Made by a program: the position numbers and the translations under genes | The notes under the pieces: model-generated | Databases searched by the model: none | What the model was told of the DNA's origin: nothing | What the model saw: the letters and a program-made list of their open reading frames with translations, nothing else | NCBI GenBank assembly: GCA_951406725.2 | Contig: OX597827.1 | Coordinates: 79,298,001 to 79,362,000 of the forward strand | Length of the DNA: 64,000 nt | Direction: 5' to 3' | DNA from: Octopus vulgaris | Taxonomy: Eukaryota | In this document: piece after piece, positions 145 through 61,579 of the stretch | How the letters are laid out: each line of letters opens with the position of its first letter | How positions within the stretch are numbered: position 1 is the stretch's first letter

Positions 145-3114
145 CTATGTTGGCTGTAGATAGGTATCTTGTATTTGTTGTCCCTTTAGTATTGTGGCTG
201 CAACTGGATTGTCATTGGTATATTCTGCAAAATATCAAATATACAAACACAAATTACATTTCAACATAACAACTCCAATATATAAAGATAGAAACATTGA
301 TCTTGTATTACACTAAGCATAACATTATATATTGTCCTACAGTAATAAAGGCAATTACATTTATAAGTTATGTTTTGATAAAAGTTACCTGGTTCTGCAG
401 GTATCTCATCATATGGTTTAGTCTTGCCATTACTCTTGCTAGCTTCTCTGTCCTTTTGGGATGTTAAGGTGTCACTGTTGTAAGACATGATGGAACTGGT
501 GCGACGTCCATGACTATAGATTGAATCACATCTCTGTGGATAGTAGAAAGTGGAATCCTGTATAAATACAAGTTTAGATCACTTCTAATAAAACAGTCTG
601 AGGGACTGAAGTTGAGTTTTTTGTAGTAATAACTGTACATAGATGAATAATGGATAAAATACTTCTACCTTCATAATAATAAGCAAAAAAACATCAATTA
701 TCCAAAATAATATTTACCTGAGGCACAGGTGGAAGTCTCCTTTGTGTTGTTGAGAATTTCCATTCATCTGGTGTCTGTTCCATCTCCAGAAAAAACTGAC
801 TTTTAGATTTTATTGTCTGAAGATTTCGGTTAAATATCTCTTCTGCATTTCTTGTTATTGCAACAGGATTGTTAGTCTGATACAGTAATTGTCTCATCTC
901 AGTCTGAGAGAGAAAGTTGGGATTCTCTGCTGTTGTGGGTGAGTTATTTGTGTGATTAATACATCTGAAAACACACAGTGTTATGGACACTACAATAGCC
1001 ACAGATAGTATTACAGCTGCTGCTACAATGATAATTATCCAAGTCATATTCAGGTCGTGACCAGATTGGAATGGCACAGCAGTCAACATTGGAGATGTAT
1101 CATTACTAACAAACAGTGTTAGTATGATAGCAGTTGTTGCTGATTGAACTGGAGTACCACCGTCTTTCACTATAAACTGCAGCTCATATGTTCCTGCATC
1201 ATTTTGGTAAACTGTGCGAGAGAAAGATAACACACCAGTGTGTGAGTTCACTGTAAACAGGTTTTTATCATTGGATCTCAGTATTCCATATGTGAGGAAA
1301 GCATTGTTTCCAGTGTCTTTGTCAGATGCTCTCAGAATTGTGATGTCCTTCTTACTGTGTGGATGGTAGTGGACATCGAGATTGTAAGGGTCATTATTAG
1401 GAAACGTAAAATACGGAGCATTATCATTTTTATCTAGAATCTCAATAACAATATTGGCAGTGTCATTGAGAGAAGGTGTTCCATTATCTTTCACTAAAAC
1501 CTTGAACTTATAGATGTCTTTCATTTCTCGATCTATTGATTGTGATGTAGAAATAAATCCATATTTGGTCAGTTGGAAAGGAATGTTATCATTGTTGTTA
1601 TCATTGATGATAGAATATGTAAGTTGGCCTCCATCTCCAAGATCAGGGTCTGTAGCATTGATGAAGCCAATAGGGAAGTCAACTTTCTGGTTTTCATAGG
1701 TGAGGAATTGGAATGTCTCTTTGGTAAAATGTGGTTCTACATCATTGACATCAGTTACTTTGACAGAGAAATATTTTTTACTTTCTAGTTGAGGTGACCC
1801 CATGTCATGACACACAACAGATACTTTATAGTGGTCCCTTATTTCTCTGTCAAGATGACCCTTAACAATCATTTTATATTCTTTAGAATCTATTTTGGCA
1901 AGTTTAAACTTATCATGTTTTAAATCACAGATAACCTCACCATTAGGTCCACTATCAGTGTCAGTGACCATAACATAAGCTATAAAACTATCTACTTCAC
2001 TGTCTTCTGGAACTGCTGCTGAGCTCTCTGATAAAGGAGATACAAAATCTATGTTTATCAATGGAGCAGTATTCCTATTATTAATCACATAAATGTGAAC
2101 TCTAGCTACTGTCTTTAGAGGAGGGTTGCCGCCATCCTGCGCTTCAATAAATAATTTATAAGATTGCCTTTTACTGAAATGAAAATTATCATGTAAAAAT
2201 AAATCTCCAGTTTTCTTATCTAAAACAAAATATTTCTGGATATTTTGAGATGTTTTATGGTTGAAATGATAAGAAATCTTTCCATTGTCTCCAGAATCTC
2301 GATCTGTGGCTTTTAAAGTAAGAATTGGTAAATGTCTTTGATGTGAATTATTTATAGAGATATTATAGAATTTCTGTGAAAATACAGGTGTGTTATCATT
2401 GACATCTGTCACAGATATGTGTACCTTGAGTGTAGCTGTTTTGGCAGGGTTTCCTCCATCTTTAGCTTCCAGTGTCAACATATATGAATATTTTAGTTCC
2501 CTGTCTAATTTATCTGCTAAAGTCAGTTCAGGTATAAAAATACCATCCTGTTTTGTGACTGAGAGAGAAAATGGTTCTCTTTTACTTTTTTTAATCATAT
2601 ATGTAATTTGAGAATTCTTTATTGAAATATCTTGATCAATGGCATTTAAAAGTGAGATTTTAGTCCCTTTAAATTGGCTTTCGAGAAATTCAATTTCAAC
2701 TTCATTCTGTGGAAACTCTGGAGAATGGTCATTGATGTCTTCTATTAATATTTTTATCCTTAGAATCTTCATAAACGTTTTTCCTTTCCTCACTGCCACC
2801 TTCACAGTTCTAGAACATTCCTTGTTGTATGTACACAGAGACTCAGCATCCAGTGTTTGAGTAGTGTATAGTTTTCCTGAGTTGGTGACATTAAATAAGT
2901 GAGAACCACTCTCGACTGTCCTTTGTAGTTGTGTAAATGTAATGAGAGTGTGTTGTTGATGCGTGAGAGGGTGTGATAAGTTGGAGTCAACAGCAATGTC
3001 TCCTATATAGGTGTGAGGTCTGTCTTCTTCCTTGACATGGTATGCAATATCTATGGACAGTACAAGGGTGATCAGTAAAGGTAGAAGACACAGTAGACCA
3101 ATATATTGTGTCAT
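145..3114 (-). CDS. Protocadherin g1 (signal peptide, 6 EC repeats, TM, cytoplasmic tail), ~873 aa; coding exons 3114-718, 533-389, 224-145
   Basis: Cadherin motifs (LDRE, DxNDN, DxD), Pcdh-type EC1 LDAESLCxxxxxC and a hydrophobic TM. Donor CAG|GTAAAT at 718/717, acceptor CAG|AGA at 534/533, donor CCAG|GTAACT at 389/388, acceptor TGCAG|AA at 225/224. The phases join in frame to EYTNDNPVAATILKGQQIQDTYLQPT*. Confidence 0.93.
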
Positions 3115-5141
3115 GTCTGGAATTCTTCATCACACTTTAGCAGGAGAGTTTTCTACAAAACACAACAGACATTGAAAGTCTAAATAAAATTCAATAAAAT
3201 AAACTAAAATAAAGCAGTCATTGTGTAGATGTTATTCATTGTACTTTGTTATATTCCCTGAAGCTAAACTTAAAACTTTAAACTAATAGTTTACAAACAT
3301 AACGTTATTGTTGCAGTTATACCATGCCTCCATCTAGCTGAGAACCAGACTTTGATATGTGATGTAAAGTGATGGTCTGAGCCAATGTAAGAACTTTTAT
3401 ATGGTCATTCTGTCTGTGGTAGTAAAAGGCAGCCCAACCTTTAAATCTGATTCTACAGTCTTACAAATAGATGAATAAACTTGATAAAGTAATCCTGAAT
3501 ATAATAAACCAGAAATGATGACAGAATGTTGACAGCTTGAATAATGCAGACTCTGACAAGGAAATATTAAAACCCTTTAAATTTACATCACAGAGAAAGA
3601 TTTTAGTCGTTGGAGATTAATGATATATACAATATGAAAACAACAGCAATTCTACTCTAAGCTGATGGTAGGTCTAATTCTACAATTAGACCTACCATCT
3701 AAGCTGATGGTAGGTCCTAATCAAAAGAGAAGTAAAATATATTGTGAAATTAATGAACAGTAGTCTCTCGAGATATTTAATTAATGAAGTTTAGGTTTGC
3801 AGAGCGAAAGATTAAGGACATGATAACCTAAATGTACTTTATTGTGTCTTGTTGGTTGGAATTCCTCTCTTTTGTTACCGTATTTCTGTTGGAATACATT
3901 GCTTTTGTTTCGATCAATTTCAAAACTACAGCAAAAATTTAGTAAAATAACTTTGTCAAAATGAATCTGGTGATTGGAACACAAATCAAGATGAAATTTG
4001 ATGGAAAGCTTTAATTTAAAGCACTTTAAGAAGGAAGTTAATATCATAAAACCTGGCACAATTGGAGGCAAGTTGGTATCAGAGAGGGTGAAAGACATTT
4101 GATAATAATATACCTGTTTCACAGAAATGTAGGATAAGTGTATCTAAGACACCTAATAACCTGGATAGAAGATGTCTTGTTGACTTATTTCACAAATAAC
4201 TGACAAAGAATAGATTATAAAATTATGTGGAAATACTTTACAAAAATGGGAATTATAAAATGGTGGAGTGATATGTTGATGGAAAAATATGTATAATTAT
4301 CTTCATGAAATATGCAGATATCTTTCTTATCAAATAAATTGTAATAAAAGTAATTTAATCCCTATTTACATATAACATTTAGATTTTATACATATAAGAT
4401 ATTTCTGTTATATTATATATAGTATTAACAACTGTAATAATGAAATGTTTGTTAATTTGTAGAGAAATGATATTATATCTGAATAATTCTCAATATTCAT
4501 CTTTTGTTGTCAGGATTAATATATTTTAACAACACATGACAATATAATTGCTTTATATATCACACTAAATATCTTAAATAACAAATCTACACGAAATAAT
4601 ATTGACCAACATCTTTACATAACTTGGCTTTGTAAATGAGCAATCGCATGTGTTGATCTAAATGGCCTCCAAATGTATTCAATGAGTTTCTTTGCCCAAG
4701 AAGTCGGGAAGACACTTAGCAAGAAATGTAGATGTAAATTGAAAGGAGGAAAATACATAATGATAATAATAATAATAATGATGGTGATGACGAGGATAAA
4801 TATTCTTGGTTTATTATATACAAAAAAATACACAATGGATATTCAGTAGGGCATATATATATATATGTAGATATATATCTATAAATATATGTATTTACAT
4901 ACACACACACACACACACATATATAAGGATATGAATGATCCGTTAGAGTTAATTAAAGCTAGAGAAAATTAGGATTTTATTAGGGATATATCGCGAGAAC
5001 AAAGATATGAACTATATCAACATACATTATCAACACCCAGTCTTGTTGGCTATCAATCAATGTTTTGTGATAGTTAAATGTTTATATATATATCTAATTT
5101 AGACTAGTTTAAACAAATAATGTGTACTATATATTGTAGCA

Positions 5142-5286: not shown

Positions 5287-5441
5287 GTTAATGGTGGAAG
5301 TGATGGCTAGATCTCTCGATCCTCCACTGTCCCAGTCCCTGTATATATACAACATGGCAGACATTTTAGATATTATCCTTACCCTGTCTTTCATTAGAAA
5401 CACAAATAATATAAATGTTATAATGAATATGAAAAGATAAT

Positions 5442-5479
<38 letters not shown>

Positions 5480-5886
5480 CTGCATTGTTTAATCCTTTAC
5501 TGTAGTTGTGTGTGATGGATGATGTGTATCCTGCTGTAGTGTTCCACTCCAACTGCTGCTGCTGCTGCTGTAGTGGTATTATAGTGGTACTGCTGCTGTT
5601 GTAGTAGTGTTCCTGTGTTACTGCTGCTGCTGCTGCTGTTCCTGTGTAACTGCTGATATAATAGTGTGACAGTTGCTGTATGTAGTGGGAGGTGAGATGT
5701 TAGCCAGATGCTGGTGTGTGCTAGTTACAACTCTATGTCCTCCACACACACACACACACAATTGTGTGTATGATGAACAAAGAAAAAAGCTATCAGCCTC
5801 ACTTTCAATATTGAAAGAAATATAGAAAATCTCTCTCATCCAATAGGAAATTACTGCAATGTTGTCTGTGTTACACAAACACATCA
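5287..5886 (-). promoter_or_regulatory. g1 conserved cassette: CCAAT box (5840-5844), putative first exon ending at donor 5480/5479, (GA)n and conserved intronic block
   Basis: About 600 bp, near-identical in all 8 units. Perfect donor CAG|GTAAGT. No minus-strand ATG from 5817 down to the last 6 nt of the exon. Confidence 0.75.
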
Positions 5887-6695
5887 AACAAGAGAAATGA
5901 TGTTAAACAGAAAGAACATCACATTTTTTTCTTCAACAAAACACTACATTACATATATTTGTATTAAACTATAAGATTTATAATAATATTTCTTGATAGT
6001 TGATGGGTTATTTATAACTTCACTATAAGAATACATATTCAGGATTCCTATTAGAAACAAAATGATTTTAGAAGAAGTCATCAAAGATTTCATTATTTAA
6101 GAAGTTCACATGATATTTTCTATGTCATATTTCATAAAATATAAAACATTTCAATTTCAATTTTTAAATGAGTAGATCATTTCAGTATGTTATGAATATA
6201 GGTGACAGCACTTTATTGCATTTTGTGGGCACCAACAGTTATTCATCTATACTGATATTAATCGATTAATAAAATTCAATATACACAGAATATAAAAGAT
6301 AAAGTGGTGTGAACAAAACACAAAATGGAAAAAAATGTAAAACCATGGTATAAGTTAGTATGAAACTAATTAATGGTAGAAGTGATATCAAACCAATAAA
6401 TACTATAACTGAAAATTCTAGGATGACCCTAATTAATTTATATATGTTTAGTGAAACTTCTATAGGAAAACTAAGAGTAAAAGAACTATCTTATAAAATA
6501 ACTAAAGTAATGTAGTCATTTCTTGTATTTCATGTATCAGAGATGTAAATTGGGAGTCATAGTAGATGCCACTGTAAGGCCTTTTATGTGTGATGTGTGA
6601 AAGAAACATAGAGTTGATATTTTTATATGAATATATAGTATTGTATGAGATTTGGTGTGAGAGAGAATCATTTAACAATAGTCATGGAACATCTA

Positions 6696-11697: not shown

Positions 11698-11737
<40 letters not shown>

Positions 11738-12143
11738 CTGCATTGTTTAATCCTTCACTGTAGTTGTGTGTGATGGATGATGTGTATCCTGCTGTAGTGT
11801 TCCACTCTAACTGCTGCTGCTGCTGCTGTAGTGGTATTATAGTGGTACTGCTGCTGTTGTAGTAGTGTTCCTGTGTTACTGCTGCTGCTGCTGCTGTTCC
11901 TGTGTAACTGCTGATATAATAGTGTGACAGTTGCTGTATGTAGTGGGAGGTGAGATGTTAGCCAGATGCTGGTGTGTGCTAGTTACAACTCTATGTCCTC
12001 ACACACACACACACACAATTGTGTGTATGATGAACAAAGAAAAAAGCTATCAGCCTCACTTTCAATATTGAAAGAAATATAGAAAATCTCTCTCATCCAA
12101 TAGGAAATTACTGCAATGTTGTCTGTGTCACACAAACACATCA
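11543..12143 (-). promoter_or_regulatory. g2 conserved promoter/first-exon cassette (CCAAT 12097-12101; donor 11738/11737)
   Basis: Near-identical to the g1 cassette. Confidence 0.75.
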
Positions 12144-12985
12144 AATAAGAGAAGTCATGTTAAACAGAAGCAACTTCACTTTTTCTATTTAATGGAAGTA
12201 CTAAATTTGCATTTCAATGTTAGGAAATAAGAGACTTGAATTAAAATATAAGATTTATTAATAATATTTACTTATATTTGATGGGTTATTATTAACTTTA
12301 CTATAAGAATACATTTTCTGGATTCCTATCAGAAAGAAATTGTTTTTAGATTAAGTCACAAAAGATTTCTTTAGTTAAGATGTTTACATGATTAGATAAA
12401 CTGTAGACTAAGTAAATTAGGAGAAACAAAAATATTTCCAAGTTAAAAAATTTAAAATGCACATGATTTTCTCATATTTTCTGTAATATTTCATAAAATA
12501 TGAAACATTTGAAAATCAATAACTAAGAAAACTTCAAATATAGTTTTGGTTTGTTAGCAACATAGGTGAATATTTAGTGCTAAATTACTGGTAGCTGTTA
12601 ATTAATAAAATTTAAGAAAAGCTGAATATAAAAAGAAAAGAAAAAAATATTTTAGTATGATGATAATATAATGGGAGAATTGGTATCAAAAAAGCTACTA
12701 TAACTAAACATTCTAGAATGACTCAGATAAATTAACCAATGTTTAGTGAAATGGCTAAAAGAAAACCGAGAGGAAAATAAATATTCTATAACAATGTTCT
12801 TTGGTAATGAAGAGTAGGATTTTTGAAATATTTACTGTAAATTAGGGGTCATAATAGATTCTACTTTAAGGCCTTTTAAATGTGATGTGTGAGAGACATA
12901 GAGTTGATATTTTTATATGAATATAAAGTATTGTATAAGATTTGATGTGTGAGAGAATCATTTAACAATAGTCATGGAACATCTA

Positions 12986-15900
12986 CTATGTTGGCTGTAG
13001 ATAGGTATCTTGTATTTGTTGTCCCTTTAGTATTGTGGCTGCAACTGGATTGTCATTGGTATATTCTGCAAAATATCAAATATACAAACACAAATTACAT
13101 TCCAATATAACAACTCCAATATATAAAGATAGAAACACTGATCTTATATTACACTAAGCATAACATTATATATTGTCCTACAGTAATAAAGGCAATTACA
13201 TTTATATGTTATGTTTTGATAAAATTACCTGGTTCTGCAGGTATCTCATCATATGGTTTAGTCTTGCCATTACTCTTGCTAGCTTCTCTGTCCTTTTGGG
13301 ATGTTAAGGTGTCACTGTTGTAAGACATGATGGAACTGGTGCGACGTCCTTGACTATGGATTGAATCACATCTCTGTTGATTACAGAAAAATGAATGTTA
13401 TATCAATACAAGTTCAGATGACTCCTAATAAAACAGTTCTCATATAAAGCATATTCTATTTAGATAATGAATATTGTATTTTGCTATCACAAGGACACCA
13501 AAGAACAATTAATTCAGAATGCCACAGAAAAGCCAGAAATTTTAACCAAAGGAACGAAACGTTTCATACACATGAGAATCTGAAATAGATATTTGAAAGA
13601 AATATTTGAATGCACATCAATAATTGATTAAATACTTTTGTATTTATAATCGAAAGGATATTTACCTGAGGCACAGGTGGAAGTCTCCTTTGTGTTGTTG
13701 AGAATTTCCACTCATCTGGTGTCTGTTCCATCTCCAGAAAAAACTGACTTTTAGATTTTATCGTCTGAAGATTTCGGTTAAATATCTCTTCTGCATTTCT
13801 CGTTATTGCAACAGGATTGTTAGTTTGATACAGTAATTGTCTCATCTCAGTCTGAGAGAGAAAGTTGGGATTCTCTGCTGTTGTGGGTGAGTTATTTGTG
13901 TGATTAATACATCTGAAAACACACAGTGTTATGGACACTACAATAGCCACAGATAGTATTACAGCTGCTGCTACAATGATAATTACCCAAGTCATATTCA
14001 GGTCGTGACCAGACTGGAATGGCACAGCAGTCAACATTGGAGATGTATCATTACTAACAAACAGTGTTAGTATGATAGCAGTTGTTGCTGATTGAACTGG
14101 AGTACCACCGTCTTTCACTATAAACTGCAGCTCATATGTTCCTGCATCATTTTGGTAAACTGTGCGAGAGAAAGATAACACGCCAGTGTGTGAGTTCACT
14201 GTAAACAGGTTTTTATCATTGGATCTCAGTATTCCATATGTGAGGAAAGCATTGTTTCCAGTGTCTTTGTCAGATGCTCTCAGAATTGTGATGTCCTTCT
14301 TACTGTGTGGATGGTAGTGGACATCGAGATTGTAAGGGTCATTATTAGGAAACGTAAAATACGGAGCATTATCATTTTTATCTAGAATCTCAATAACAAT
14401 ATTGGCAGTGTCATTGAGAGAAGGTGTTCCATTATCTTTCACTAAAACCTGGAACTTATAGATGTCTTTCATTTCTCGATCTATTGATTGTGATGTAGAA
14501 ATAAATCCATATTTTGTCAGTTGGAAAGGAATGTTATCATTGTTGTTATCATTGATGATAGAATATGTAAGTTGGCCTCCATCTCCAAGATCAGGGTCTG
14601 TAGCATTGATGAAGCCAATAGGGAAGTCAACTTTCTGGTTTTCATAGGTGAGGAATTGGAATGTCTCTTTGGTAAAATGTGGTTCTACATCATTGACATC
14701 AGTTACTTTGACAGAGAAATATTTTTTACTTTCTAGTTGAGGTGACCCCATGTCATGACACACAATAGATACTTTATAGTGGTCCCTTATTTCTCTGTCA
14801 AGATGGCCCTTAACAATCATTTTATATTCTTTAGAATCAATTTTGGCAAGTTTAAACTTATCATGTTTTAAATCACAGATAACCTCACCATTAGGTCCAC
14901 TATCAGTGTCAGTGACCATAACATAAGCTATAAAACTACCAATTTTACTTGCTTCTGAAACTGCTGCTGAGCTCTCTGATAAAGGAGATACAAAATCTAT
15001 ATTAATCATGGGTACATTATTTCTGTTATTAATTATTTGAATCTGAACTGCTGCAACAGACTTTTTTGGTGGCTTACCTCCATCCATTGCTTCAATAAAT
15101 AATTTATAAGATTGCATCTTAGTAAACTGAAAATTATCATGTAAAAATAAATCTCCAGTGTTCTTATTTAATACAAAATATTTCTGGATATTTCGAGATG
15201 TTTTATGGTTGAAATGGTAAGAAATCTTTCCATTGTCTCCAGAATCTTGATCTGTGGCTTTTAAAGTAAGAATTGGTAAATGTCTTTGATGTGAATTATT
15301 GATAGAAATGTTGTACATTTCCTGTGAAAATACAGGTATGTTATCATTAGCATCTGTCACAGTTATGTGTACCTTGAGTGTAGCTGTTTTGGGAGGATTC
15401 CCTCCATCTTTAGCTTCCAAGATCAACATATATGAATCTTTTACTTCCCTGTCTAATCTGTCTTCTAGAATTAGCTCAGGTATAAAAATACCCTTTTGTT
15501 TTGTGACAGAAAGTGAAAATGGTTCTCTTTTACTTTTCTTAATCATATATGTAATTTGGGAATTTTTTATCGAAATATCCTGATCAATGGCATTTAGAAG
15601 GGAGACCATTTCCCCTTTTCTGTCTCTCTCAGAAAATACAATCTCAGCTTCATTCTGTGGAAATTCTGGAGAATGGTCATTGATGTCTTCTATTAATATT
15701 TTTATCCTTAAAATTTTCATAAATGTTTCTTCTTTCCTCACTGCTACTTTAACAATTCTGAAACATTCTTTGTTGTATGTACACAGAGACTCAGCATCCA
15801 GTGTTTGAGTAGTGTAGAGTTTTCCTGAGTTGGTGACATTAAATAAGTGAGAACCACTCTCGACTGTCCTTTGTAGTTGTGTAAATGTAATGAGAGTGTG

Positions 15901-16062
15901 TTGTTGATGTGTGAGAGGGTGTGATAAGTTGGAGTCAACAGCAATGTCTCCTATATAGGTGTGAGGCCTGTCTTCTTCCTTGACATGGTATGTAATATCT
16001 ATGGACAGTACAAGGGTGATCAGTAAATGTAGAAGACACAGTAGACCAATATATGCTGTCAT
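12986..16062 (-). CDS. Protocadherin g3, ~873 aa; coding exons 16062-13666, 13373-13229, 13065-12986
   Basis: Same motifs and splice sites; exon-3 donor variant GTAATT. Confidence 0.93.
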
Positions 16063-18060
16063 GTCTGGAATTCTTCATCACATTTCAGCAGGAGAAATTT
16101 CTACAAAAGACAGCAAAGATATTTAATGCTTATGTAAAATGTAAACCAATTTATATTTATAAAAACGACTGTGACACTTCTATGTTTATCTGTAAAAATG
16201 CTCCATTAGTCCCAATTGAATAGTCTTCTCTTGTCTGATAATCTACAAGATAATCTCCTAATATAATAATGAGTATATTGTTTTCATATATTTGTGTATA
16301 TATATATATATATATATTTGTCCAAAATCATGCAGTAGGCATGAAAGGTATAGGGACAGGAGAGGAGAGAAAATAATAATTCAGTGAAGGAGAAGTAGTG
16401 AAAGTAATAGCCATGACTGAGGGGGAGTGAGAGAAAGTAATAGCAATGAAAAAGAAAGAGGAAGAGGCAAAGAGAGCATTGTGTATCTTCTACTATAATA
16501 ATACTCTTGTGTATTTATCTGTCCCAATATAGGAATGAGAAAGGAAGGGGTGATTCACTGATGGAAGTGGAATGGTGAAAAGTCAACAGTGAAACAAAAA
16601 TCAAACAGCGCTTCAAAACTGTGTGTGTATATGTATCTGCATGTAAAAGAGAGGAATGTGAAAGTTTGCGTTTGTGTTTGTGTAAAATATACTTATATAT
16701 TTAAGTGATTGTACATCTGTTTGTGTATGTTTATTTAGAAAGATACATAGAAGATAGAATTATAGACATATGCATTTATACACACACATATAAACAGAAA
16801 CACTTAAAAAGGAAGGAAGCGGATTGTGACAAAGTATAGAAAACCGCATTCGCTGCACACTGTCCTATTCATACATATAAATGTATGCATATGCACAAAC
16901 ACAGAACTGAAACACTGTTTGTTTTTCTTTCACCTTTTTATATATAAAATACTACAATTAGCAATCATTTTGGACAGCAATGGGCCATCTAGAAATACGT
17001 AACGAGAGTTATCTCCCTTGAGTAATTCTCCCAACTTTATCTCTACACACCTCATTTTGTGAATGGTAATCCTCTTCCCATAAGCCAAGATCATCTGTCA
17101 CCATTTACCCCACCCTTATGTATGCCTGACTTTGTCTCTGCCCCTGTGCATCGTTCTTCCACCCACTCCACCCCTCACTCCACATCCTCTTTGCTAGCAC
17201 CCACACCTACTTTCTCCACCTTCCCCTCTATCTGATATTTATAATTGACAAGGATTCCACAGTGTTCACCACTCACTGCATTTCCCTTAAACTCTATCTC
17301 TATCCATCTGCCACTCACCTCTCACATTACCACAGACTTACCTACCCAAGGTATGCTCTAACACATCTTCCCAACCATCTTCTTTCTACCATATAACTTT
17401 TTACAGCAACACACCTGTTCCAGTCCCTCTATCATACTTCAGCCTCTCATTACCTGGCATAAAGCCACTCCCCTCAATATTACTCACCCTTGTTTTTGTC
17501 TTGCAAGTCACTTGGTCATCTGGTGACCTTGCTAGTGCTGGTGCCAAATAAATAGCACCCAGTACACTCAGTAAAGAAGTTGGCTTTAGAAATGGAATCC
17601 AGACTTAGAAACAATACTAAAGCAGACACTGGAGTTTGGTGCAGTCAACTGGTTTATCACCATCAATCTCATGATAACATGGGAAATAATCATATGATGA
17701 TGATAATGATGATTATAGTATATATGTATATATAGGTAGTTTCAACATACCAGCAAATGATATATATCTATATATTTACATAGGTACAGTTACAGGTACA
17801 TATACATAAACAATTGAGTACATATGTACAACTATGTGTACATAGTGTATACACACATGTATGCATATAAATGTATGTGTGCATATATATATTTATGTTT
17901 GTACATATGTATGTATTATACATATGTATACATGCATATGTACATACATATGTGTATATATAGGTAGCTCTCACATTCTGTATTTCTAATGCTCACATCC
18001 TCACAAGAATTTTGTCCATCAACATCAACTAATACAATGTCTCAGATGAGATTATATATA

Positions 18061-18208
18061 TCATCATCATCATCATCATCATCGTTTAACGTCCGTTTTC
18101 CATGCTAGCATGGGTTGGACGGTTCAACTGGGGTCTGGGAAGCCAGAAGGCTGCGCCAGGCCCAGTCTGATCTGGCAGTGTTTCTACAGCTGGATGCCCT
18201 TCCTAACA
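18061..18208 (-). mobile_element. SINE family B fragment with (CAT)n tail
   Basis: (cat)n-cgtttaacgtccgttttccatgctagcatgggttggac...ggatgcccttcctaa. Recurs at ~33563, 51033, 58600, 59493 and 60095, and inverted at ~17520, 38250 and 42205. Confidence 0.75.
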
Positions 18209-18505
18209 CCAGAACCTGTCCAAGAAAATTTGCTCAATACCAAGTTACTGACACTATCTTTTCACTCATCATCAAAAATGCAGTAAACTAATGTTTCATC
18301 CATTGGAAAACTGTAACCAGTATCACTAATTTTCATTAATTGCAACATAAAATGTACAAAGAAGCCACAAACAGCTGTAACCATTTTGATTTTAAAGATA
18401 TTTTAAGGAGCAACCTACATATATATATACATATAGCAACCTACATATATACATATATATATATATATACACATTTATATACATATATATATATATACAC
18501 ACATT

Positions 18506-18546
<41 letters not shown>

Positions 18547-18565
18547 TTATATACATTTTTTGGGG

Positions 18566-18739
18566 AAGAGGGCTAGTTGATTATATCAACCCCAGTGTGT
18601 AGCTGGTACATATTTCTGCAACCCCAGAAAGATGAAAGGCAAAGTCGACCGTGGCAGAAATTGAACTCAGAATGTAGCGGCAGATGAAATACCGCTAAGC
18701 ATTTTCCCTGGTATGCTAACGGTTCTGCCAGCTCACCAC
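18566..18739 (-). mobile_element. tRNA-derived SINE family A
   Basis: Minus-strand A box (TGGCAGAACCGTTAG) and B box (GAGTTCAATTTC); homologous to 50138-50366. Confidence 0.8.
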
Positions 18740-18947
18740 TTTAAAGAAAAACTATAATAATGTGGTGTATGTTAATTTGTAGAAAGAAGATGAGATTATT
18801 TCTGATCAATTTTCAACATTCATCTCTTGTTTTCAGACTTGATATATTTTAACAACATGTGACAATATCATTGGCTTATATCTTGCACAAAATATCTTAA
18901 ACAGCAAACCTACACTAAATAATAATTATCACCAGTTTCTTAATAAA

Positions 18948-18978
<31 letters not shown>

Positions 18979-19377
18979 TTAAAAACATTTTTAGTTTTAT
19001 TAGAAAATACAAAGAAATATATAATAGATATTTCAAATAGTATATATATATATATATATTGGGATTAGCAATGTGCTAGAGTTCACTGAAGGTAGAGAAA
19101 GATAAGATTTAATTAGTAAATTATTATGACAAAAACAGATATACAATACACTGACATGCATTACTAACAGCCAGTCTTATTGGTTATCAGTCAATGTTTT
19201 CCGACAGTGAAATAAATATATATGCACCTAGTTTGGAATATATTAAACCATTATACATAAGAAATATCAGAGCAATATATACAGTTTAATATCTCATGAA
19301 TAAGGATTGATTCTGACGTTAAAAGACGTAATCCAGTTTGAAGTAATTATATTACAATGTCTATTACAGATGTTGTT

Positions 19378-19534
19378 GTTAATGGTGGAAGTGATGGCTA
19401 GATCTCTCGATCCTCCACTGTCCCAGTCCCTGTATATATACAACATGGCAGACATTTTAGATATTATCCTTACCCTGTCTTTCATTAGAAACACAAATAA
19501 TATAAATGTTATAATGAATATGAAAAGATAATAA

Positions 19535-19566
<32 letters not shown>

Positions 19567-19970
19567 CTGCATTGTTTAATCCTTTACTGTAGTTGTGTGT
19601 GATGGATGATGTGTATCCTGCTGTAGTGTTCCACTCCAACTGCTGCTGCTGCTGCTGTAGTGGTATTATAGTGGTACTGCTGCTGTTGTAGTAGTGTTCC
19701 TGTGTTACTGCTGCTGCTGCTGCTGTTCCTGTGTAACTGCTGATATAATAGTGTGACAGTTGCTGTATGTAGTGGGAGGTGAGATGTTAGCCAGATGCTG
19801 GTGTGTGCTAGTTACAACTCTATGTCCTCCACACACACACACACAATTGTGTGTATGATGAACAAAGAAAAAAGCTATCAGCCTCACTTTCAATATTGAA
19901 AGAAATATAGAAAATCTCTCTCATCCAATAGGAAATTACTGCAATGATGTCTGTGTCACACAAACACATC
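19378..19970 (-). promoter_or_regulatory. g3 conserved promoter/first-exon cassette (CCAAT 19925-19929; donor 19567/19566)
   Basis: Near-identical to the g1 cassette. Confidence 0.75.
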
Positions 19971-20775
19971 GAATAAGAGAAGTCATGTTAAACAGAAGCA
20001 ACTTCATTTTTTCTATTTAATAAAAACACTAAGTTTACATATCTAATGTTAGGAAATAAGAGATTTGTATTAAAATATAAGATTTATAATAATATTTCTT
20101 GAGATTAACTTCACTATAAGAATACATACTCAGGATTTCTATCAGAAACAAATTAATTTTAGAGTAAGTCAACAAAAATTTCATTATTTAAGAAGTTTTC
20201 ATGATTAGAGAAACTATAAACGAAGTAAATTAGGAGAAACAAAAGTATTTCAAAGTGAAGAAAAAAAAAAAACAATCTTATTTGTACTTCCTAAAATATG
20301 AATTCCTTTAAATTTCAATATTTAACAAAACTTTTAATGTTTTCAATATAGGTAACAGTATGTCGCCCTTAAATTGTAGCTACTGTTAATTAGTAAAATT
20401 TAAGAAACACTCAATAAAAAAAAATAGATGATATTAATTAAACATAGAATTGATATCAAACTAAAAGCTACTAAAACCAAACATTCTAGGATGAATCAGG
20501 TTAATTTATTTAAGTTTTAGTGAAATGTCTATACTAAAACTGACAGTAAATTAAATGTTTAATAATAATTAACTATGGTAATGTAGAGTTGGGTGTTTTG
20601 TAATATTTAGTGTATCAGAGATGTAAAAAAGGGATGATAATAGATACCACTGTAAGGCCTTCTATGCGTGTAATATGTGAAAGACACATAGAGTTGATAT
20701 TTTTATATGAATATAAAGTATTGTATAAGATTTGGTGTGTGAGAGAATCATTTAACAATAGTCATGGAACATCTA

Positions 20776-23700
20776 CTATGTTGGCTGTAGATAGGTATCT
20801 TGTATTTGTTGTCCCTTTAGTATTGTGGCTGCAACTGGATTGTCATTGGTATATTCTGCAAAATATCAAATATACAAACACAAATTACATTTCAATATAA
20901 CAACTCCAATATATAAAGATAGAAACATTGATCTTGTATTACACTAAGCATAACATTATATATTGTCCTACAGTAATAAAGGCAATTACATTTATATGTT
21001 ATGTTTTGATAAAAGTTACCTGGTTCTGCAGGTATCTCATCATATGGTTTAGTCTTGCCATTACTCTTGCTAGCTTCTCTGTCCTTTTGGGATGTTAAGG
21101 TGTCACTGTTGTAAGACATGATGGAACTGGTACGACGTCCTTGACTATGGATTGAATCACATCTCTGTGGATTAGAAAACAAAGCAGGGTGAATCATTAG
21201 GCTAAAAAGAAGAAACTTTTGCATTTATATTCTAGAATGCCCCAGGTAAGACACAAGGAAGGGTAATACAATCAGACCATCAGAATTATTAATATTCAAT
21301 AATTTATTTGTATAAAAGAATTAGAGAAACAAGTTTAGTTGTTAAATGAAATAATTCTACTAATTCTGAAAGGTGTAAATTGATAGGAAAGCTTTTACAT
21401 TTCTAGAAAGAAGAGGAAAAAATATACAAACTAGAACATAACTGTTATAACCACAACTGTGATATATCATTTCCGAAACATCAATTAAAATAATATTTAC
21501 CTGAGGCACAGGTGGAAGTCTCCTTTGTGTTGTCGAGAATTTCCATTCATCTGGTGTCTGTTCCATCTCCAGAAAAAACTGACTTTTAGATTTTATTGTC
21601 TGAAGATTTCGGTTAAATATCTCTTCTGCATTTCTCGTTATTGCAACAGGATTGTTAGTCTGATACAGTAATTGTCTCATCTCAGTCTGAGAGAGAAAGT
21701 TGGGATTCTCTGCTGTTGTGGGTGAGTTATTTGTGTGATTAATACATCTGAAAACACACAGTGTTATGGACACTACAATAGCCACAGATAGTATTACAGC
21801 TGCTGCTACAATGATAATTACCCAAGTCATATTCAGGTCGTGACCAGACTGGAATGGCACAGCAGTCAACATTGGAGATGTATCATTACTAACAAACAGT
21901 GTTAGTATGATAGCAGTTGTTGCTGATTGAACTGGAGTACCACCGTCTTTCACTATAAACTGCAGCTCATATGTTCCTGCATCATTTTGGTAAACTGTGC
22001 GAGAGAAAGATAACACACCAGTGTGTGAGTTCACTGTAAACAGGTTTTTATCATTGGATCTCAGGATTCCATATGTGAGGAAAGCATTGTTTCCAGTGTC
22101 TTTGTCAGATGCTCTCAGAATTGTGATGCCCTTCTTACTGTGTGGATGGTAGTGGACATCGAGATTGTAAGGGTCATTATTAGGAAACGTAAAATACGGA
22201 GCATTATCATTTTTATCTAGAATCTCAATAACAATATTGGCAGTGTCATTGAGAGAAGGTGTTCCATTATCTTTCACTAAAACCTTGAACTTATAGATGT
22301 CTTTCATTTCTCGATCTATTGATTGTGATGTAGAAATAAATCCATATTTTGTCAGTTGGAAAGGAATGTTATCATTGTTGTTATCATTGATGATAGAATA
22401 TGTAAGTTGGCCTCCATCTCCAAGATCAGAGTCCGTAGCATTGATGAAGCCAATAGGGAAGTCAACTTTCTGGTTTTCATAGGTGAGGAATTGGAATGTC
22501 TCTTTGGTAAAATGTGGTTCTACATCATTGACATCAGTTACTTTGACAGAGAAATATTTTTTACTTTCTAGTTGAGGTGACCCCATGTCATGACACACAA
22601 TAGATACTTTATAGTGGTCCCTTATTTCTCTGTCAAGATGGCCCTTAACAATCATTTTATATTCTTTAGAATCTATTTTGGCAAGTTTAAACTTATCATG
22701 TTTTAAATCACAGATAACCTCACCATTAGGTCCACTATCAGTGTCAGTGACCATAACATAAGCTATAAAACTACCAATTTTACTTGCTTCTGAAACTGCT
22801 GCTGAACTCTCTGTTAAAGGAGATACAAAATCTATATTTATCAATGGAGCATTATTCTCATTATTAATTACATGAAGCTGAACTCTGGTAACAGATTTTT
22901 TGGGTGGCTGTCCTCCATCCCTTGCTTCAATAAACAATTTATAAGATTGCTTTTTACTAAATTGAAAATTATCGTGTAAAAATAAATCTCCAGTTTTCTT
23001 ATTTAATACAAAATATTTCTGGACATTTTGAGATGTTTTATGGTTGAAATGATAAGAAATCTTTCCATTGTCTCCAGAATCTTTATCTGTGGCTTTTAAA
23101 GTAAGAACTGGTAAATGTCTTTGATGTGAATTATTTATAGAGATGTTGTAGAGTTTCTGTGAAAATGAAGGTGTGTTATCATTGACATCTGTTACAGATA
23201 TGTGTACCTTGAGTGTAGCTGTGTTGGGAGGGTTTCCTCCATCTTTAGCTTGAACTGCTAAAATATATGAGTCTTGAAGTTCCCTATCTAATGTTTCTTC
23301 TAGAATGAGTTCAGGTATGAAAATACCATCCTGTTTTGTGACAGAGAGAGAAAATGGTTCACTCTTGCTTTTTTCAATCATATATGCAAGTTGGGAATTT
23401 TTTATTGAAATATCTTTATCAATTGCATTTAGAAGAGATATTCTAGTTCCTTTACTGTCTGTCTCAGAAAATGCAATTTCAACTTCATTCTGTGGAAATT
23501 CTGGAGAATGGTCATTGATGTCCTGTATCAATATTTTTATTTTAAGGATTTTCATAAAGGTTTGTCCCTTTCTCACAGCTACTTTAACTATTCTGGAACA
23601 TTCCTTGTTGTATGTACACAGAGACTCAGCATCCAGTGTTTGAGTAGTGTATAGTTTTCCTGAGTTGGTGACATTAAATAAGTGAGAACCACTCTCGACT

Positions 23701-23897
23701 GTCCTTTGTAGTTGTGTAAATGTAATGAGAGTGTGTTGTTGATGTGTGAGAGGGTGTGATAAGTTGGAGTCAACAGCAATGTCTCCTATATAGGTGTGAG
23801 GTCTGTCTTCTTCCTTGACATGGTATGTAATATCTATGGACAGTACAAGGGTGATCAGTAAATGTAGAAGACACAGTAGACCAATATATGCTGTCAT
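20776..23897 (-). CDS. Protocadherin g4, ~873 aa; coding exons 23897-21501, 21164-21020, 20855-20776
   Basis: Same motifs and splice sites. Confidence 0.93.
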
Positions 23898-24280
23898 GTC
23901 TGGAAGTCTTCATCACATTTCAGCAGGAGAAATTTCTACAAAACACCAGAAACACATTTAAAGCTTATGTATAATTTAACCAACTTCATTCTATTTATAA
24001 TAATCATTATGAAACTTCTATTCCATTAGCTGCAATTTGTATAGTCTTCTGAGATCTGACAATCCTTAAGACCATACATAACGAGAGTTATCTCCCTCGA
24101 ATAAACGTTCCATCTTAATCTGAAATAGTAAACGTCATGCTTACATTGTTTTTCATTCTGCTTTTCCGTGAAAATTCAGTCTATTTTCAGAGTTAGCAAT
24201 TAAAAATTTCAGGTTTAATGTCGATAACTCCTGAACAGATTCACATATTTCTTAAAAAATATATATAAACTGAAAAAACG

Positions 24281-24487
24281 GTTCCAAATTTTGGCAGAAG
24301 GCCAGCAATTTCCTGGGTGGGGTTAAGTTTATTACATTGGTCCCAGTCTTCAACTGGTGCTTATTTTACTGAAAGGATGTATGGCACAGCCGACCTTGGC
24401 AGTATTTGAACACAGAATGTAATAACAGATGAAATGCAGCTAAGTATTCTGTCCAGGTTACTAATGAATCTGCTAGCTTGCCACCTT
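24281..24487 (-). mobile_element. Degenerate SINE family A
   Basis: Similarity by eye to 50138-50366 (actggtgcttatttt...gaaaggatg...tttgaacacaga...ctgctagcttgcc). Confidence 0.65.
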
Positions 24488-24859
24488 CAGGTATACTGAT
24501 GTATTGTAAACTGATATAGAAAAGATGAATACCAAAGTGAGATACTAAATATCTTGGAATTAAACTCAAATCGCTGAGCATTGTTTCCATGGCTGGATAC
24601 CCTTCTTGTTGCCAAACACTATACATTGAGTACTGGTTGCCTTTCATGTTGCACCTGCTCCAGCTATGCCACCAAGTAACTTATGGACAAGACACACACA
24701 CACACACACACCACATCGACATGTAACTAAATGTGTTGAGTGCTCATTCTTTCATTTGTTCTCTCTCGTGTATTTCTATGTATGCAGATATATTCTCTTA
24801 TTTGTTTCAGAACTGATTCTTTGTAAGCCCAGTATATATTCTATCATTCTCTTTTGCTG

Positions 24860-24922
24860 AACTCCCAAGTTACAGGGATGTAAACACATCAACATCAAAC
24901 GATGGCATGGGGACAAACACAG

Positions 24923-24961
<39 letters not shown>

Positions 24962-25118
24962 CGATAAGCTTCTTTCAATTTCCATCTACCAAATCCACTC
25001 ACAAGGCTTTAGTTAGCCCATGGCCATAGTAGAAGACACTTGCCTAAGGTGCCATACAGAGGGACTGAACCCAGAATCATGTGGTTGGAAAGCAAGCTTC
25101 TTACCACACAGCCATGCC
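24860..25118 (-). mobile_element. tRNA-derived SINE family C with internal (CA)n/(TA)n
   Basis: Minus strand starts AGGCATGGCTGTGTGGTAAG (A box) ... GGTTCAGTCCC (B box), followed by ACCTTAGGCAAG. Confidence 0.7.
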
Positions 25119-25462
25119 TGTATATACATACAGCTAGTTTGAACACAGGAACAAATGCACTGTACTTGAGAACATTTAATCAAAAATGAATTTCTAAAAG
25201 GATATCTCCTATGTCTATGCTCTGCACCCAATCTGTCCCTGACAAATCTCTCCTCTCATACAATTTACTTTCTTAATACCCATCCCTACCAAAAGCCATC
25301 TTCCCAACACCTTCACCTCCATCAATCTTCTGACTATATGTACATACATATATGCATATATAAGTAGCTCTTACATTTTGCATTTCTAATGCTCACATCC
25401 TCACAAGAACTTTCTCCATCAAACATCAACTAATGCAATAACCATGTCTCTGTTGATAAATA

Positions 25463-25508
<46 letters not shown>

Positions 25509-27812
25509 CTGTCAGATGAGTCAAATGCCATATAACATTAGTGACTGCCTGTAACATCCAGTCTCCCAGCCCCAGCACAATCCTATTTGCTTCAATTCAA
25601 CAAAACCTGTGATCAGGAAGTGAATATCTTAGACTGATTTCCTTTAATTTACAAGCTCCCTTTAACGAACATTAATTAGGAATGAAATAAATCAATAAGT
25701 CAAGAAATACATCTGTAGCAAGAGTCTCTCAGGACACCACTGAAAGGGGCAGCAGACACCAAACCTAGATGGACATAAGCTACGAGAAGCAAACAAGATA
25801 AGGGTAATAGATATGATTTTGGCTATAAAATATCTTGTGATGGTTGATAGAAAAGGGCTTCACTCAAAGGTCTGCTGTGTTCTCTATTAATGAACATTAA
25901 TTAAGAATAAATTAAATAGTTAAGTCAAAAACTACCTCTGTAGCAAACAAATCTCAGGACACCATTAAAAGAGGTAGCATTTGGTGGATGTAATTCACAA
26001 GGACAAGATAATGATAATAGATATTACTTATGATTGCTTCAGTTTACAGTTGAAATATTATTTTATTATTAAATTAAGAGTGGATGTACTGACTAAAATA
26101 TACATAAAATTCCATATAATTTCCTGCTTAATTGGAAAACGTAAACAAAAACCAAGTGGGAAATGTTAATAACAGTAACAAGTGAGATCATTTCAAGAAA
26201 TTAGGAAATCATCTCTCAGTGTTCATTTACATGCTCACAGCAAGGAATGTATAATGTTTGCATTAACTATTTCCCTGTTTCAGTCTCTTAGGCATCATCA
26301 GCATAGCATAGTCTAAAAGAGCATTCTCATCATTTGACAAAGTCATTGCATATAGAGGAAATGACTTATGAATAACTTTTCACCGTTATTATCTTCATAA
26401 TTAAAAGACAAGGAGATCAGGGAAATAATTCCAATGTGACAATGGCATCAAAGAGCAATAAATAAAGGTTTGATGCACTGAATGTTGTATACAAAATGGT
26501 TCTAAATAAATTGAAAATTGAAATGGAGAAAGAAACACCCTGGTGACAAAACATGCTACTCAGAAAATATTGTGAGAGCAAAGGAATAGGTCTGTCAGCT
26601 GAAACTAAACCAGAATCAATCCCATAAGAGAGTGTTGGCATCATGAAACTCCTCTTCTTAGGACTCTAATATTTGCTTCAGTTCAATGTGCCATTCTCTT
26701 ACTAGCATGTGAAAGTACAAGTAAACAAAATATCACAGACTACTTTACAAGTTCTTGATTAATAAAGGATAATTAGCATTAAATTAACTCATAAAGTCAA
26801 GAACAATCTCTACAGCAGAGTGAAATGAGAGGGAAAACAACCATGAAAACTTTGATAACCAGATGTAAAATGTATCAATGAGAATTACAAAAAGTCTCTT
26901 ATTAATGGGAGAGGCCAGAAAATCTCAGTGAATTATCAGCCAACTTAACAAAAACTATATATTTTTTAATTGCTATATATATACAAATATACATTTTTCA
27001 ACAAATATAACATGAAAAGCTCTAGTTGACTTCTCTCACTGTCAGCTGCTTCATTTTAGGCCAAGAAAAATATTTCTTCTAATCCTAAAAAGTGTTACAA
27101 ATACATTTAGAGAATACTGAAAACAATTAATAGAATATTATTGGTATAAAATTTTGTACAAATGGATCAGAGGATGTTGTTAAACTTGATAGAGGATATT
27201 TAGAAAACTTATTCATCCAATATCTTTAAGGAATATTTAATTTGTTGAAAAGAAAAAAAAAAGGATTATTAAAATTTGACATAAATAACACAGAATAATT
27301 TATAAAATAATGTTGAATATTTCACAATATATCTTAAAGGTACAAAAATAGGGACTGTAAAATATTTCAGCAGAGATTGTTTATAAAAATTTATCTATAA
27401 TTATCACCAAGAAATATTGAGATCTATTTACTAAGCATAATAATAATAATAATAATTTAACCCCATTTAGATATATTTTGTAGGCTTTATATCATACTGC
27501 TACGCATAATATAATTGTGATGTCTATTACTTTGTAGAAAGAGGATATCATTTCTGATCAATTCTCAAAAAATTTACAAAGCTCATTGATTGTTGTCAGA
27601 GTTAATATATTTTAACAACACAGGACAATATTGTCAGTTTATATCTCACAACAAATATCTTAAATAACTATTCTACTATTCTAAATAAATCAACATCTTA
27701 AAAATAACAATAATAATAACAAAATACACTTTTCTTTAATTGCATACAAAGAAATGTATCATAGATATTTAACAGGGCAGGTATTTATCTATCTATCTCT
27801 TTATCTATCTAC

Positions 27813-27859
<47 letters not shown>

Positions 27860-28199
27860 TATATAAAAGGATATTAGTGATCTGTAAGAGATTATTCAAA
27901 CTAGACAAAGATTAAGATTTAAGTGAATTATTATGACAAAAAAAATATAAACTATAATAACAGGCATTATTAACACCCAGTCTTACTGGCTTTCAATCAA
28001 TGTTTTCTAACGGTTAAATAAATATATATACACCTAGTTTGGACTATATTAAACCAATATTATATATAAAATATATCATAGCAATATATATGTATATAGT
28101 CTAATATCTCTTGTTTAATGTTGCCTTGAGTGATTCCAACATTAAAAGAAGTAATCCAGATTGAAGTAATTGTATTACAATGACTACTGCAGTTGTGTT

Positions 28200-28799
28200 G
28201 TTAATGGTGGAAGTCATGGCTAGATCTCTCGATCCTCCACTGTCCCAGTCCCTGTATATATACAACATGGCAGACATTTTAGATATTATCCTTACCCTGT
28301 CTTTCATTAGAAACACAAATAATATAAATGTTATAATGAATATGAAAAGATAATAAAGAGAGAGAGAGAGAGAGAGGGAGACTTACCTGCATTGTTTAAT
28401 CCTTCACTGTAGTTGTGTGTGATGGATGATGTGTATCCTGCTGTAGTGTTCCACTCCAACTGCTGCTGCTGCTGCTGTAGTGGTATTATAGTGGTACTGC
28501 TGCTGTTGTAGTAGTGTTCCTGTGTTACTGCTGCTGCTGCTGATGTTCCTGTGTAACTGCTGATATAATAGTGTGACAGTTGCTGTATGTAGTGGGAGGT
28601 GAGATGTTAGCCAGATGCTGGTGTGTGCTAGTTACAACTCTATGTCCTCCACACACACACACACACACACACAATTGTGTGTATGATGAACAAAGAAAAA
28701 AGCTATCAGCCTCACTTTCAATATTGAAAGAAATATAGAAAATCTCTCTCATCCAATAGGAAATTACTGCAATGTTGTCTGTGTCACACAAACACATCA
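28200..28799 (-). promoter_or_regulatory. g4 conserved promoter/first-exon cassette (CCAAT 28753-28757; donor 28387/28386)
   Basis: Near-identical to the g1 cassette. Confidence 0.75.
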
Positions 28800-28810
28800 A
28801 ATAAGAGAAG

Positions 28811-29330
28811 TCATGTTAAACAGAAGCAACTTCACTTTTTCTATTTAATAAAAACACTAAGTTTACATATCTAATGTTAGGAAATAAGAGATTTGTATTA
28901 AAATATAAGATTTATAATAATATTTCTTGAGATTAACTTCACTATAAGAATACATACTCAGGATTTCTATCAGAAACAAATTAATTTTAGAGTAAGTCAA
29001 CAAAAATTTCATTATTTAAGAAGTTTTCATGATTAGAGAAACTATAAACGAAGTAAATTAGGATTCATGTTAAACAGAAGCAACTTCACTTTTTCTATTT
29101 AATAAAAACACTAAGTTTACATATCTAATGTTAGGAAATAAGAGTTTTGTAATCAAATATAAGATTCATAATATTTTTTCATATTTGAAAGGTTATTATT
29201 AATTTCACTATAAGAATACATATCCAGGATTCCTATCAGAAACAAAATGATTTTAGAAGAAGTCATCAAAGATTTCATTATTTAAGGAGTTTTCATGATT
29301 AGAGAAACTGTATACGAAGTAAATTAGGAG
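28811..29330. repeat. Tandem duplication of ~250 bp of promoter-upstream spacer
   Basis: tcatgttaaacagaagcaacttcact...gaagtaaattagga occurs at 28811-29063 and again from 29065. Confidence 0.9.
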
Positions 29331-29972
29331 AAACAAATATATTTCTGAGTTAAAAATTTAAAAAACACATGATTTTCTGATATTTTATACTTTAGACTTC
29401 ATAAAATATGAAACTTTTGAATTTCAAAGTCAAAGCAAACTTCAAAACTGAGTTAGTTTTAGCTTATGACCAAGACTATATTGCTAGGTGTGGGAACCAA
29501 CAGTTATTTGTGTGGACTGATGTTGATTAGTTTATAGTAAAATTTAATATAAATTGAATATAAAAGAAAAAGAGGAAAAACCAAAAGAGGAATATCCAAA
29601 ATAAAAATAAAATAATGGCCAAATTTAGTATGACACTAATTAACAGTAGAATTAGTATCAAACTAAAAGATACTATAACTAAAAATTTTAGGTTAAGTCA
29701 GGTTAATTTATCTAAGTTTAGTGAAATGTCTATACTAAAACTGACAGTAAAATAAATGTTTAATAATATTAACTATGGTAATGTAGAGTAGGGTGTTTAT
29801 TATATTTCATGCGTCAGAGATGTAAATTAGGGGTCATAATAGATGCCACTGTAAGGCCCTTTATATGTGATGGATGAAAGAAACACAGAGTTGATATTTT
29901 TATCTGTATATAAAGTATTGTATAAGATTTGGTGTGTGAGAGAATCATTTAACAATAGTCATGGAACATCTA

Positions 29973-32900: not shown

Positions 32901-33076
32901 GTAATGAGAGTGTGTTGTTGATGTGTGAGAGGGTGTGATAAGTTGGAGTCAACAGCAATGTCTCCTATATAGGTGTGAGGTCTGTCTTCTTCATTGACAT
33001 GGTATATAATATCTATGGACAGTACAAGGGTGATCAGTAAATGTAGAAGACACAGTAGACCAATATATGCTGTCAT
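29973..33076 (-). CDS. Protocadherin g5, ~874 aa; coding exons 33076-30677, 30361-30217, 30052-29973
   Basis: Same motifs and splice sites; 1-codon insertion in EC2 (large exon coding part 2400 bp). Confidence 0.93.
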
Positions 33077-35777: not shown

Positions 35778-35849
<72 letters not shown>

Positions 35850-35986
35850 ACATTTTGAGTTTATGATATACAAAGACATGAAAAATATTTAACAGTATGT
35901 ATGTATGTCTATATCTATCTGTCTGTTTGTCTGTCATATATGACAGACAAACAATGTTTGTCTACATATATCTATCTATCTATATA

Positions 35987-36023
<37 letters not shown>

Positions 36024-36044
36024 ATTTTTTTTTTCTTTATTTAT

Positions 36045-42691: not shown

Positions 42692-42746
<55 letters not shown>

Positions 42747-42747
<1 letters not shown>

Positions 42748-61537: not shown

Positions 61538-61579
<42 letters not shown>

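Follow-up and report, generated by a model that had tools for sequence, protein, structure and literature searches.

A repeated palindrome and CCAAT cassette in an octopus protocadherin array probably belongs to a homogenised non-coding first exon

In the clustered protocadherin (Pcdh) genes of vertebrates, gene conversion has left dS highest in EC2-3 and lowest in EC5-6 (Noonan et al. 2004, via PMC4978886). The conserved element of these genes, the CSE, is a CGCT-containing CTCF site situated about 200 bp before the ATG and is discussed together with the eCBS (PMC7811963, PMC4978886). Gene conversion has also been suggested for cephalopod protocadherins (PMC9068888, at the level of gene trees; PMC6339937), and a 2023 review describes the cephalopod clusters as enigmatic, with vertebrate-like regulation only expected (PMC10658181). 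The available portions of PMC9068888 and PMC9795677 contain no first-exon, promoter or per-domain conversion analysis, and the word 'promoter' occurs 0 times in their main texts. Nor do the available portions of PMC9068888, PMC6339937, PMC7811963, PMC4978886, PMC9795677 and PMC10658181 report a first exon or promoter element of a cephalopod protocadherin; supplements or public annotation may show the exon. The wider question addressed here is how the 150–290 cephalopod protocadherins are deployed.

We analysed a 64,000-nucleotide stretch of Octopus vulgaris DNA (the window; C14:79298001-79362000) whose minus strand carries eight whole or partial ORFs encoding a signal peptide and cadherin repeats. 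The first of these is a coding exon at 697..3152 (minus strand), identified from its ORF and acceptor context, that encodes a signal peptide, six cadherin repeats and a TM segment; its acceptor lies ~38 nt before the ATG at 3114, where it is spliced to the first exon described below. Pfam cadherin domains were found in the neighbouring paralogue at 7375-9792. A protein search gave at least 150 matches, and contig C14 holds all of those listed. This organisation fits the chromosome-14 octopod protocadherin clusters (PMC9068888, PMC9795677). Our comparison set comprised 74 genes with a recognisable N-terminus, a part of the cluster: the 25 minus-strand genes that carry the cassette, which define sub-array A, and 49 others (one neighbour, A0, with 14 genes in sub-array B, 10 in C, 16 in D and 8 in E). 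Six of the 25 sub-array A genes have a broken coding exon yet an intact first exon, two of them within the window (46255-48689 and 55476-57901) and four in flanking loci; these could be pseudogenes or assembly errors.

The preliminary description of this DNA had proposed an upstream promoter, repeated in every unit, in which two perfect 16-bp palindromes and a CCAAT box at fixed spacing would act through NF-Y and dimeric factors. The arrangement itself stood up in all eight window units. Palindrome 1 (ACACACAATTGTGTGT, 5754..5769) consists of the end of a (CA)n microsatellite followed by AATT and (GT)3, and recurs in seven further cassette copies on the minus strand (12011..61997) that start at 12011, 19839, 28667, 36911, 44689, 54150 and 61849. 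Palindrome 2 (CTTTCAATATTGAAAG, 5802..5817) lies 48 bp beyond palindrome 1 in each of the eight, and CCAAT follows at 5840..5844 (plus strand; ATTGG in the sense of the mRNA), with no indel among the window units. In the genome as a whole, all 25 copies carry palindrome 2 and CCAAT without a mismatch and 24 of them do so for palindrome 1, and the spacing of the motifs is shifted by 1 bp in 5 of the 25. The flanking spacer DNA had been said to diverge: this holds on the high-coordinate side, but on the other side the similarity continues for 460 bp, giving a near-identical block of ~615 bp (about 5290-5905).

The genome of 2.8 Gb contains 25 cassette copies and one 34-bp relic at the array edge, and none elsewhere. 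All 25 lie in C14:79.196-79.395 Mb, each upstream of one gene, which supports both a restriction to these Pcdh genes and a location of the cassette at their 5' ends. Since there is one copy per gene of sub-array A, the cassette is not a dispersed repeat; with simple repeats skipped, 26 of 26 BLAST matches fell inside the array and none away from the gene family, and a transposon origin was rejected. The 25 copies trace to one ancestral event. In a relic gene at C14:79187389 (L004:7389), a single breakpoint in the middle of palindrome 1 connects cytoplasmic coding DNA with the cassette. Other palindromes of at least 16 bp that are not (AT)n number 42 in 862 kb, about 1 per 20 kb, and two such palindromes arose in a simulated 415-nt leader in 1 of 4000 order-1 and 0 of 4000 order-2 Markov runs. 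The pair is uncommon locally, yet the 862-kb rate, extrapolated to 2.8 Gb, predicts several hundred pairs of this kind. A lone perfect 30-bp palindrome occurs in the spacer of one unit (35924-35953).

Assembled sequencing-run contigs place the cassette within a transcript. The RNA status of these runs was guessed, and their contigs carry neither strand, start site nor single molecules; X1 and X15, which come from two studies with two organism labels, were counted as RNA because their contigs are spliced. We aligned the contigs to unit 2 (skipping 11688-11907 as repeats) and unit 6, and uncovered stretches of spacer were not counted as evidence by themselves. At 44419, the equivalent donor base of unit 6, X1 and X15 contigs leave the genomic sequence and resume with the opening bases of the coding exon, whereas those of the DNA runs X19 and X20 pass the donor into the intron. 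The donor, CAG/GTAAGT, ends the exon at 5480. Together these observations define a non-coding first exon of ~410 nt for the gene with its ATG at 3114 (5480..5891, minus strand), with the 3' end fixed by the splice donor and the 5' end approximate. The intron that separates this exon from the ATG measures 1.5-8.7 kb across copies, and its first 190 bp (5290..5479, minus strand) are likewise near-identical between copies (pi 0.024 for 5290-5443, 25 copies). The remaining introns are also spliced in run contigs (7084/7396 in 4 of 4 runs).

RNA contigs enter the cassette in four of four studies and cross both palindromes and CCAAT in X1, X4 and X15. Palindrome 1 is bridged by the spliced X15 record 9, and palindrome 2 is covered by X1 record 4 and X15 record 12. 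The depth of X1 is 329 over the exon and 332 over palindrome 2 and CCAAT; it stays at 329-332 up to the equivalent of 5861, is 257 (161+96) up to the equivalent of 5888-5891, and falls to 12 and 7.5 beyond, with 7 in the intron. X15 has a contig of depth 15 that reaches from the junction across palindrome 1, and a second, of depth 18, that crosses CCAAT. In unit 2, a single X4 contig of 436 nt begins at the counterpart of 5862, has a length that fits the exon plus junction, and accounts for all X4 depth in its bin, where X5 also shows depth. At 36-270 bp past the block end, mean depth relative to the cassette is 0.4% for X1, 30% for the DNA run X20 and 3% for the DNA run X19; because X19 also fades there, part of the drop in X1 reflects paralogue divergence. 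The depth fade is therefore a moderate hint of a 5' end near 5890, and the coverage of the cassette by spliced contigs is firmer than the placement of that end. Since spliced contigs cover the cassette at exon depth and fade near 5890, it is likely a 5' leader, with CCAAT ~50 nt downstream of the apparent 5' end. A splice acceptor within the cassette was rejected, as contigs continue without loose ends. As to a further exon upstream, X1 has no loose end of high depth among the rows listed, beyond which there were 48 more. Read-through from the 3' UTR of an upstream gene is disfavoured: among the contigs listed, two X1 contigs of low depth continue upstream.

We next consider why the copies are near-identical. 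Over 300 pairs, the mean pairwise difference was 0.0126 in the cassette, 0.0119 in the rest of the exon, 0.0098 from EC4 to the cytoplasmic end and 0.134 in EC2-3, where no pair differed by less than 5%. Diversity per 100 bp in the 25 units, obtained by pairwise BLAST projection, was 0.003 in the cassette core, 0.003-0.02 from EC4 to the tail and 0.07-0.24 in EC2-3, and reached about 0.2-0.28 in alignable intron and spacer DNA. The same mosaic is present at four-fold synonymous sites (EC1 0.080, EC2 0.254, EC3 0.254, EC4 0.041, EC5 0.044, EC6 0.030, TM-tail 0.025) in the 19 intact ORFs of 25, the six broken ones being excluded from codon counts. As silent sites are homogenised too, selection at the protein level does not explain the pattern. 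One gene (U24) has a different signal peptide and differs by 17% in EC2-3 but by 0.75% in the cassette. Within the leader block, the four-gamete test failed for 11 of 55 site pairs. A homogenised non-coding exon with a donor, each time of different sequence, is present in sub-arrays C, D and E as well. On these sequence patterns, gene conversion among tandem copies is the likely source of the near-identity. The invariance noted for the proposed promoter is not peculiar to the cassette and equals that of other converted parts of the gene. At 44250-44418, the main intron-1 contigs of X19 carry three substitutions relative to unit 6, and two of these are minor variants among window units; the numbers are small, and they fit turnover of the array consensus.

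The account that we favour, and hold to be probably correct, is that the cassette forms the 5' portion of a non-coding first exon that is spliced and common to the 25 genes, that conversion has homogenised it, and that the palindromes were copied along and not selected in their own right. Transcription would start near 5890-5900. Constrained segments (the first exon, EC1, EC4 to the cytoplasmic tail and the small 3' exons) would have stayed similar enough for continued mutual conversion, and EC2-3, most intron DNA and the spacers would have escaped it. The 25 genes would then have promoter-proximal and leader sequence in common, together with the same intracellular end, and would differ mainly in EC2-3, to which recognition specificity may be left by analogy with vertebrates. 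The cassette itself is real; the preliminary description mistook its position and made too much of its palindromes, which probably matter least.

It is unlikely, in our estimation, that the palindromes and CCAAT are instead selected protein-binding sites just downstream of the start, specific to the sub-array and merely spread by conversion. A run of ~70 invariant columns (5756-5824) spans both palindromes and is longer than in shuffles (p about 0.02, post hoc), but a second, equally invariant run is present at about 5640-5735. Diversity in the cassette (pi 0.012) is below that at synonymous sites of converted coding DNA (0.030), and this, with the long invariant run, makes some selection on the cassette possible. 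DNA runs labelled as two other organisms listed no fixed difference from the majority cassette, and the 8-bp CAATATTG occurs in 9 of 10 C genes (and in 1 of 14 B genes). Against selected sites, 1 of 37 columns of the palindromes and CCAAT varies, compared with 38 of 406 in the exon (P=0.12), the spacing shifts noted above affect 5 of 25 copies, and a microsatellite of variable length ends within palindrome 1 and makes up half of it. Neither palindrome is found in the 650 bp ending at the exon matches of the 49 other protocadherin genes.

In an improbable alternative the cassette remains an upstream promoter: transcription would start near 5740-5780, CCAAT would act from about -60 to -100, and the RNA would stem from a minor upstream or antisense transcript. 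That distance agrees with the usual NF-Y position, and the 600 bp upstream of the block contain no CCAAT or TATA-like word at a fixed place. The contigs that cover CCAAT at full depth are strandless and give no start site, and conserved CCAAT boxes do exist in sub-array D (see below). Depth in the cassette, however, is not below that of the exon (332 against 329 in X1, 18 against 15 in X15), and single contigs span the junction into the cassette. The NF-Y and dimeric-factor promoter of the preliminary description is thus not supported, its palindromes and CCAAT being crossed by RNA contigs; the flanks of this CCAAT fit the NF-Y consensus only in part. The same description had recognised no CTCF consensus by eye, and our scan of 5290-5905 agrees: the best match to a CTCF consensus, used as a plain string and not a weight matrix, had 4 mismatches of 14. 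CGCT occurs 0 times in this block and CpG once in 616 bp.

Quite improbable is a function of the cassette as RNA, in which hairpins, a (UG)n tract and upstream ORFs would set the translation or localisation of the 25 mRNAs. The cassette does lie within the transcript, and its 161-nt 5' part folds at z=-3.6, but that segment was picked for its palindromes and the whole exon (z=-0.4) folds no better than shuffles. RNAalifold on the 25 copies predicts a hairpin of 18 pairs where the RNA appears to begin (5851..5891, minus strand), in which the common variants fall in a bulge or keep G-U/A-U pairing and are compatible with the stem; a two-sided change was seen in 0 of 54 pairs, that is, none covary, and palindrome 2 has no stem of its own in the consensus fold. 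The predicted hairpin is a weak lead. Rfam gave three matches, all far below gathering scores. An upstream ATG next to the donor (5483..5485, minus strand) opens a uORF of 14-15 codons, and in 24 of 25 copies the TGA that closes it overlaps the main ATG, while the long uORFs switch frame with microsatellite length and vary from 32 to 90 codons; a conserved uORF peptide was rejected on the same frame shifts. The overlap at the donor-side uORF (5483-5485 with 3112-3152) holds also in a copy with a leader 3 nt shorter, and ACAATG stands beside the donor in sub-arrays B, C and E too. Finally, very recent duplication of whole units or an assembly artefact, for which the 8-14 Ma octopod protocadherin expansion (PMC9795677) might be invoked, is scarcely credible, being contradicted by the divergence mosaic (no pair of 300 under 5% in EC2-3, introns differing by about 20-28%) and by independent DNA runs in which the collapsed cassette contig has depths of 115 and 154 against about 3-10 for flank contigs.

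The first exon was also compared with the sister sub-arrays. A profile built from five exons of B, C and D found a homologous exon in A0 and in all genes of A (25), B (14), C (10) and D (16); among the 8 genes of sub-array E, the donor end alone matched the profile, and not significantly. The four sub-arrays A-D have in common the 3' part of the first exon with a TGTCACAC..CAGCAG motif. In the window it reads CTGTCACAC..CAGCAG at 5650..5672 (minus strand), a motif common to the homologous exon of B, C and D. A regex recovers the motif in every A (25) and C (10) gene, in 15 of 16 from D and 5 of 14 from B, and in none of the 8 from E. The 20-bp pattern YTGTCAMACYAYWVCAGCAG, which does not match the A variant of the motif, has 60 matches in the genome, 57 of them in C14:79.5-80.7 Mb, with 0 in the control; as the pattern was built from these same genes, its count shows specificity and not function.

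A second position aligns across the exon. Alignment of representatives pairs TGGCTAAC of sub-array A (5699..5706, minus strand), a decayed form, with TGACTCAC of sub-arrays B and C; at the aligned place TGACTCAC is found in C, TGACGT in most of D and TGGCTAAC in A. In B, which is not homogenised, TGA[CT]TCA occurs in 14 of 14 genes, 104-145 bp before the donor. TGACTCA and TGACTCAC are AP-1-like. In B and C, TGACTCAC sits about 30-40 bp upstream of TGTCACAC..CAGCAG. Sub-array B (C14:79.43-79.61 Mb) adjoins A and has much of EC1 in common with it; its non-coding exons are unhomogenised (pi ~0.2), and CCAAT has no fixed place in this sub-array. A 2.3-kb piece of a sub-array C gene, part of the first exon with intron, lies on C10 (C10:63175043-63177301; L081:6043-8301) at 98% identity, with no coding exon in the 20 kb around it; a retrocopy was rejected, as the intron is retained.

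Sub-array D (C14:80.40-80.55 Mb, L056-L070) has a CCAAT arrangement of its own. Upstream of its homogenised block the DNA is 25% diverged, and CCAATCA is present in 15 of 15 copies, preceded at 25-26 bp by ATTGG in 14 of them, an inverted pair that sits about 370-410 bp before the donor. The CCAAT footprint is real in D, a different sub-array from that of the cassette, and the retention of the pair in diverged DNA makes NF-Y-type control of octopod protocadherins plausible in general. AAATCAATA, which resembles a ONECUT/CUX site, is retained in 9 of 15 D copies in the same 25% diverged DNA.

The older regulatory signal is probably the set of motifs in the 3' half of the exon that the sister sub-arrays have kept, and TGTCACAC..CAGCAG is a better candidate than the palindromes for the cephalopod equivalent of the vertebrate CSE. 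One could go further, and we regard this step as rather unlikely to be right: octopods might exercise vertebrate-like Pcdh choice without CTCF, each neuron picking at random among genes with a shared first-exon module, TGACTCAC and TGTCACAC..CAGCAG serving as the CSE counterpart and the palindrome and CCAAT cassette as an address specific to the sub-array. Conversion would then give the genes the same first-exon module and make them equivalent targets for shared enhancers.

What has been gained is mostly the anatomy of the first exon and a motif common to the sub-arrays. Sub-array A now has a spliced first exon and a region in which transcription likely starts, three further sub-arrays have homologous exons, and the AP-1-like site, TGTCACAC..CAGCAG and the paired CCAAT boxes of sub-array D stand as candidate elements. 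In practical terms, 5' reads of the 25 genes are unassignable to single genes, so isoform counts must use EC2-3.

Set against the known systems, the locus agrees with the octopod sub-arrays already described, being part of a C14 cluster composed of sub-arrays of closely related, co-oriented genes (PMC9068888, PMC9795677). Like NF-Y CCAAT promoters it has the CCAAT pentamer, in 25 of 25 copies, but here the pentamer lies inside the apparent transcript, and the convincing CCAAT footprint belongs to sub-array D. The vertebrate CSE is likewise a short motif that recurs close to the 5' end of every clustered gene and is otherwise rare, a description that TGTCACAC..CAGCAG fits better than the palindromes do; the cassette sequence is confined to sub-array A and so is not common to divergent sub-clusters as a CSE would be. 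Unlike the CSE, the candidate octopus motif is in a spliced non-coding exon kilobases from the ATG. As in the vertebrate clusters, the genes are tandem head-to-tail paralogues with the same synonymous pattern, whereas in octopods whole genes are duplicated and there are no shared constant exons (PMC9068888), and homogenisation in the octopus reaches a separate non-coding first exon 1.5-8.7 kb upstream as well as the small 3' exons that every gene has for itself. Diverse EC2-3 beside a homogenised remainder, the vertebrate pattern, is also seen in this independently expanded family.
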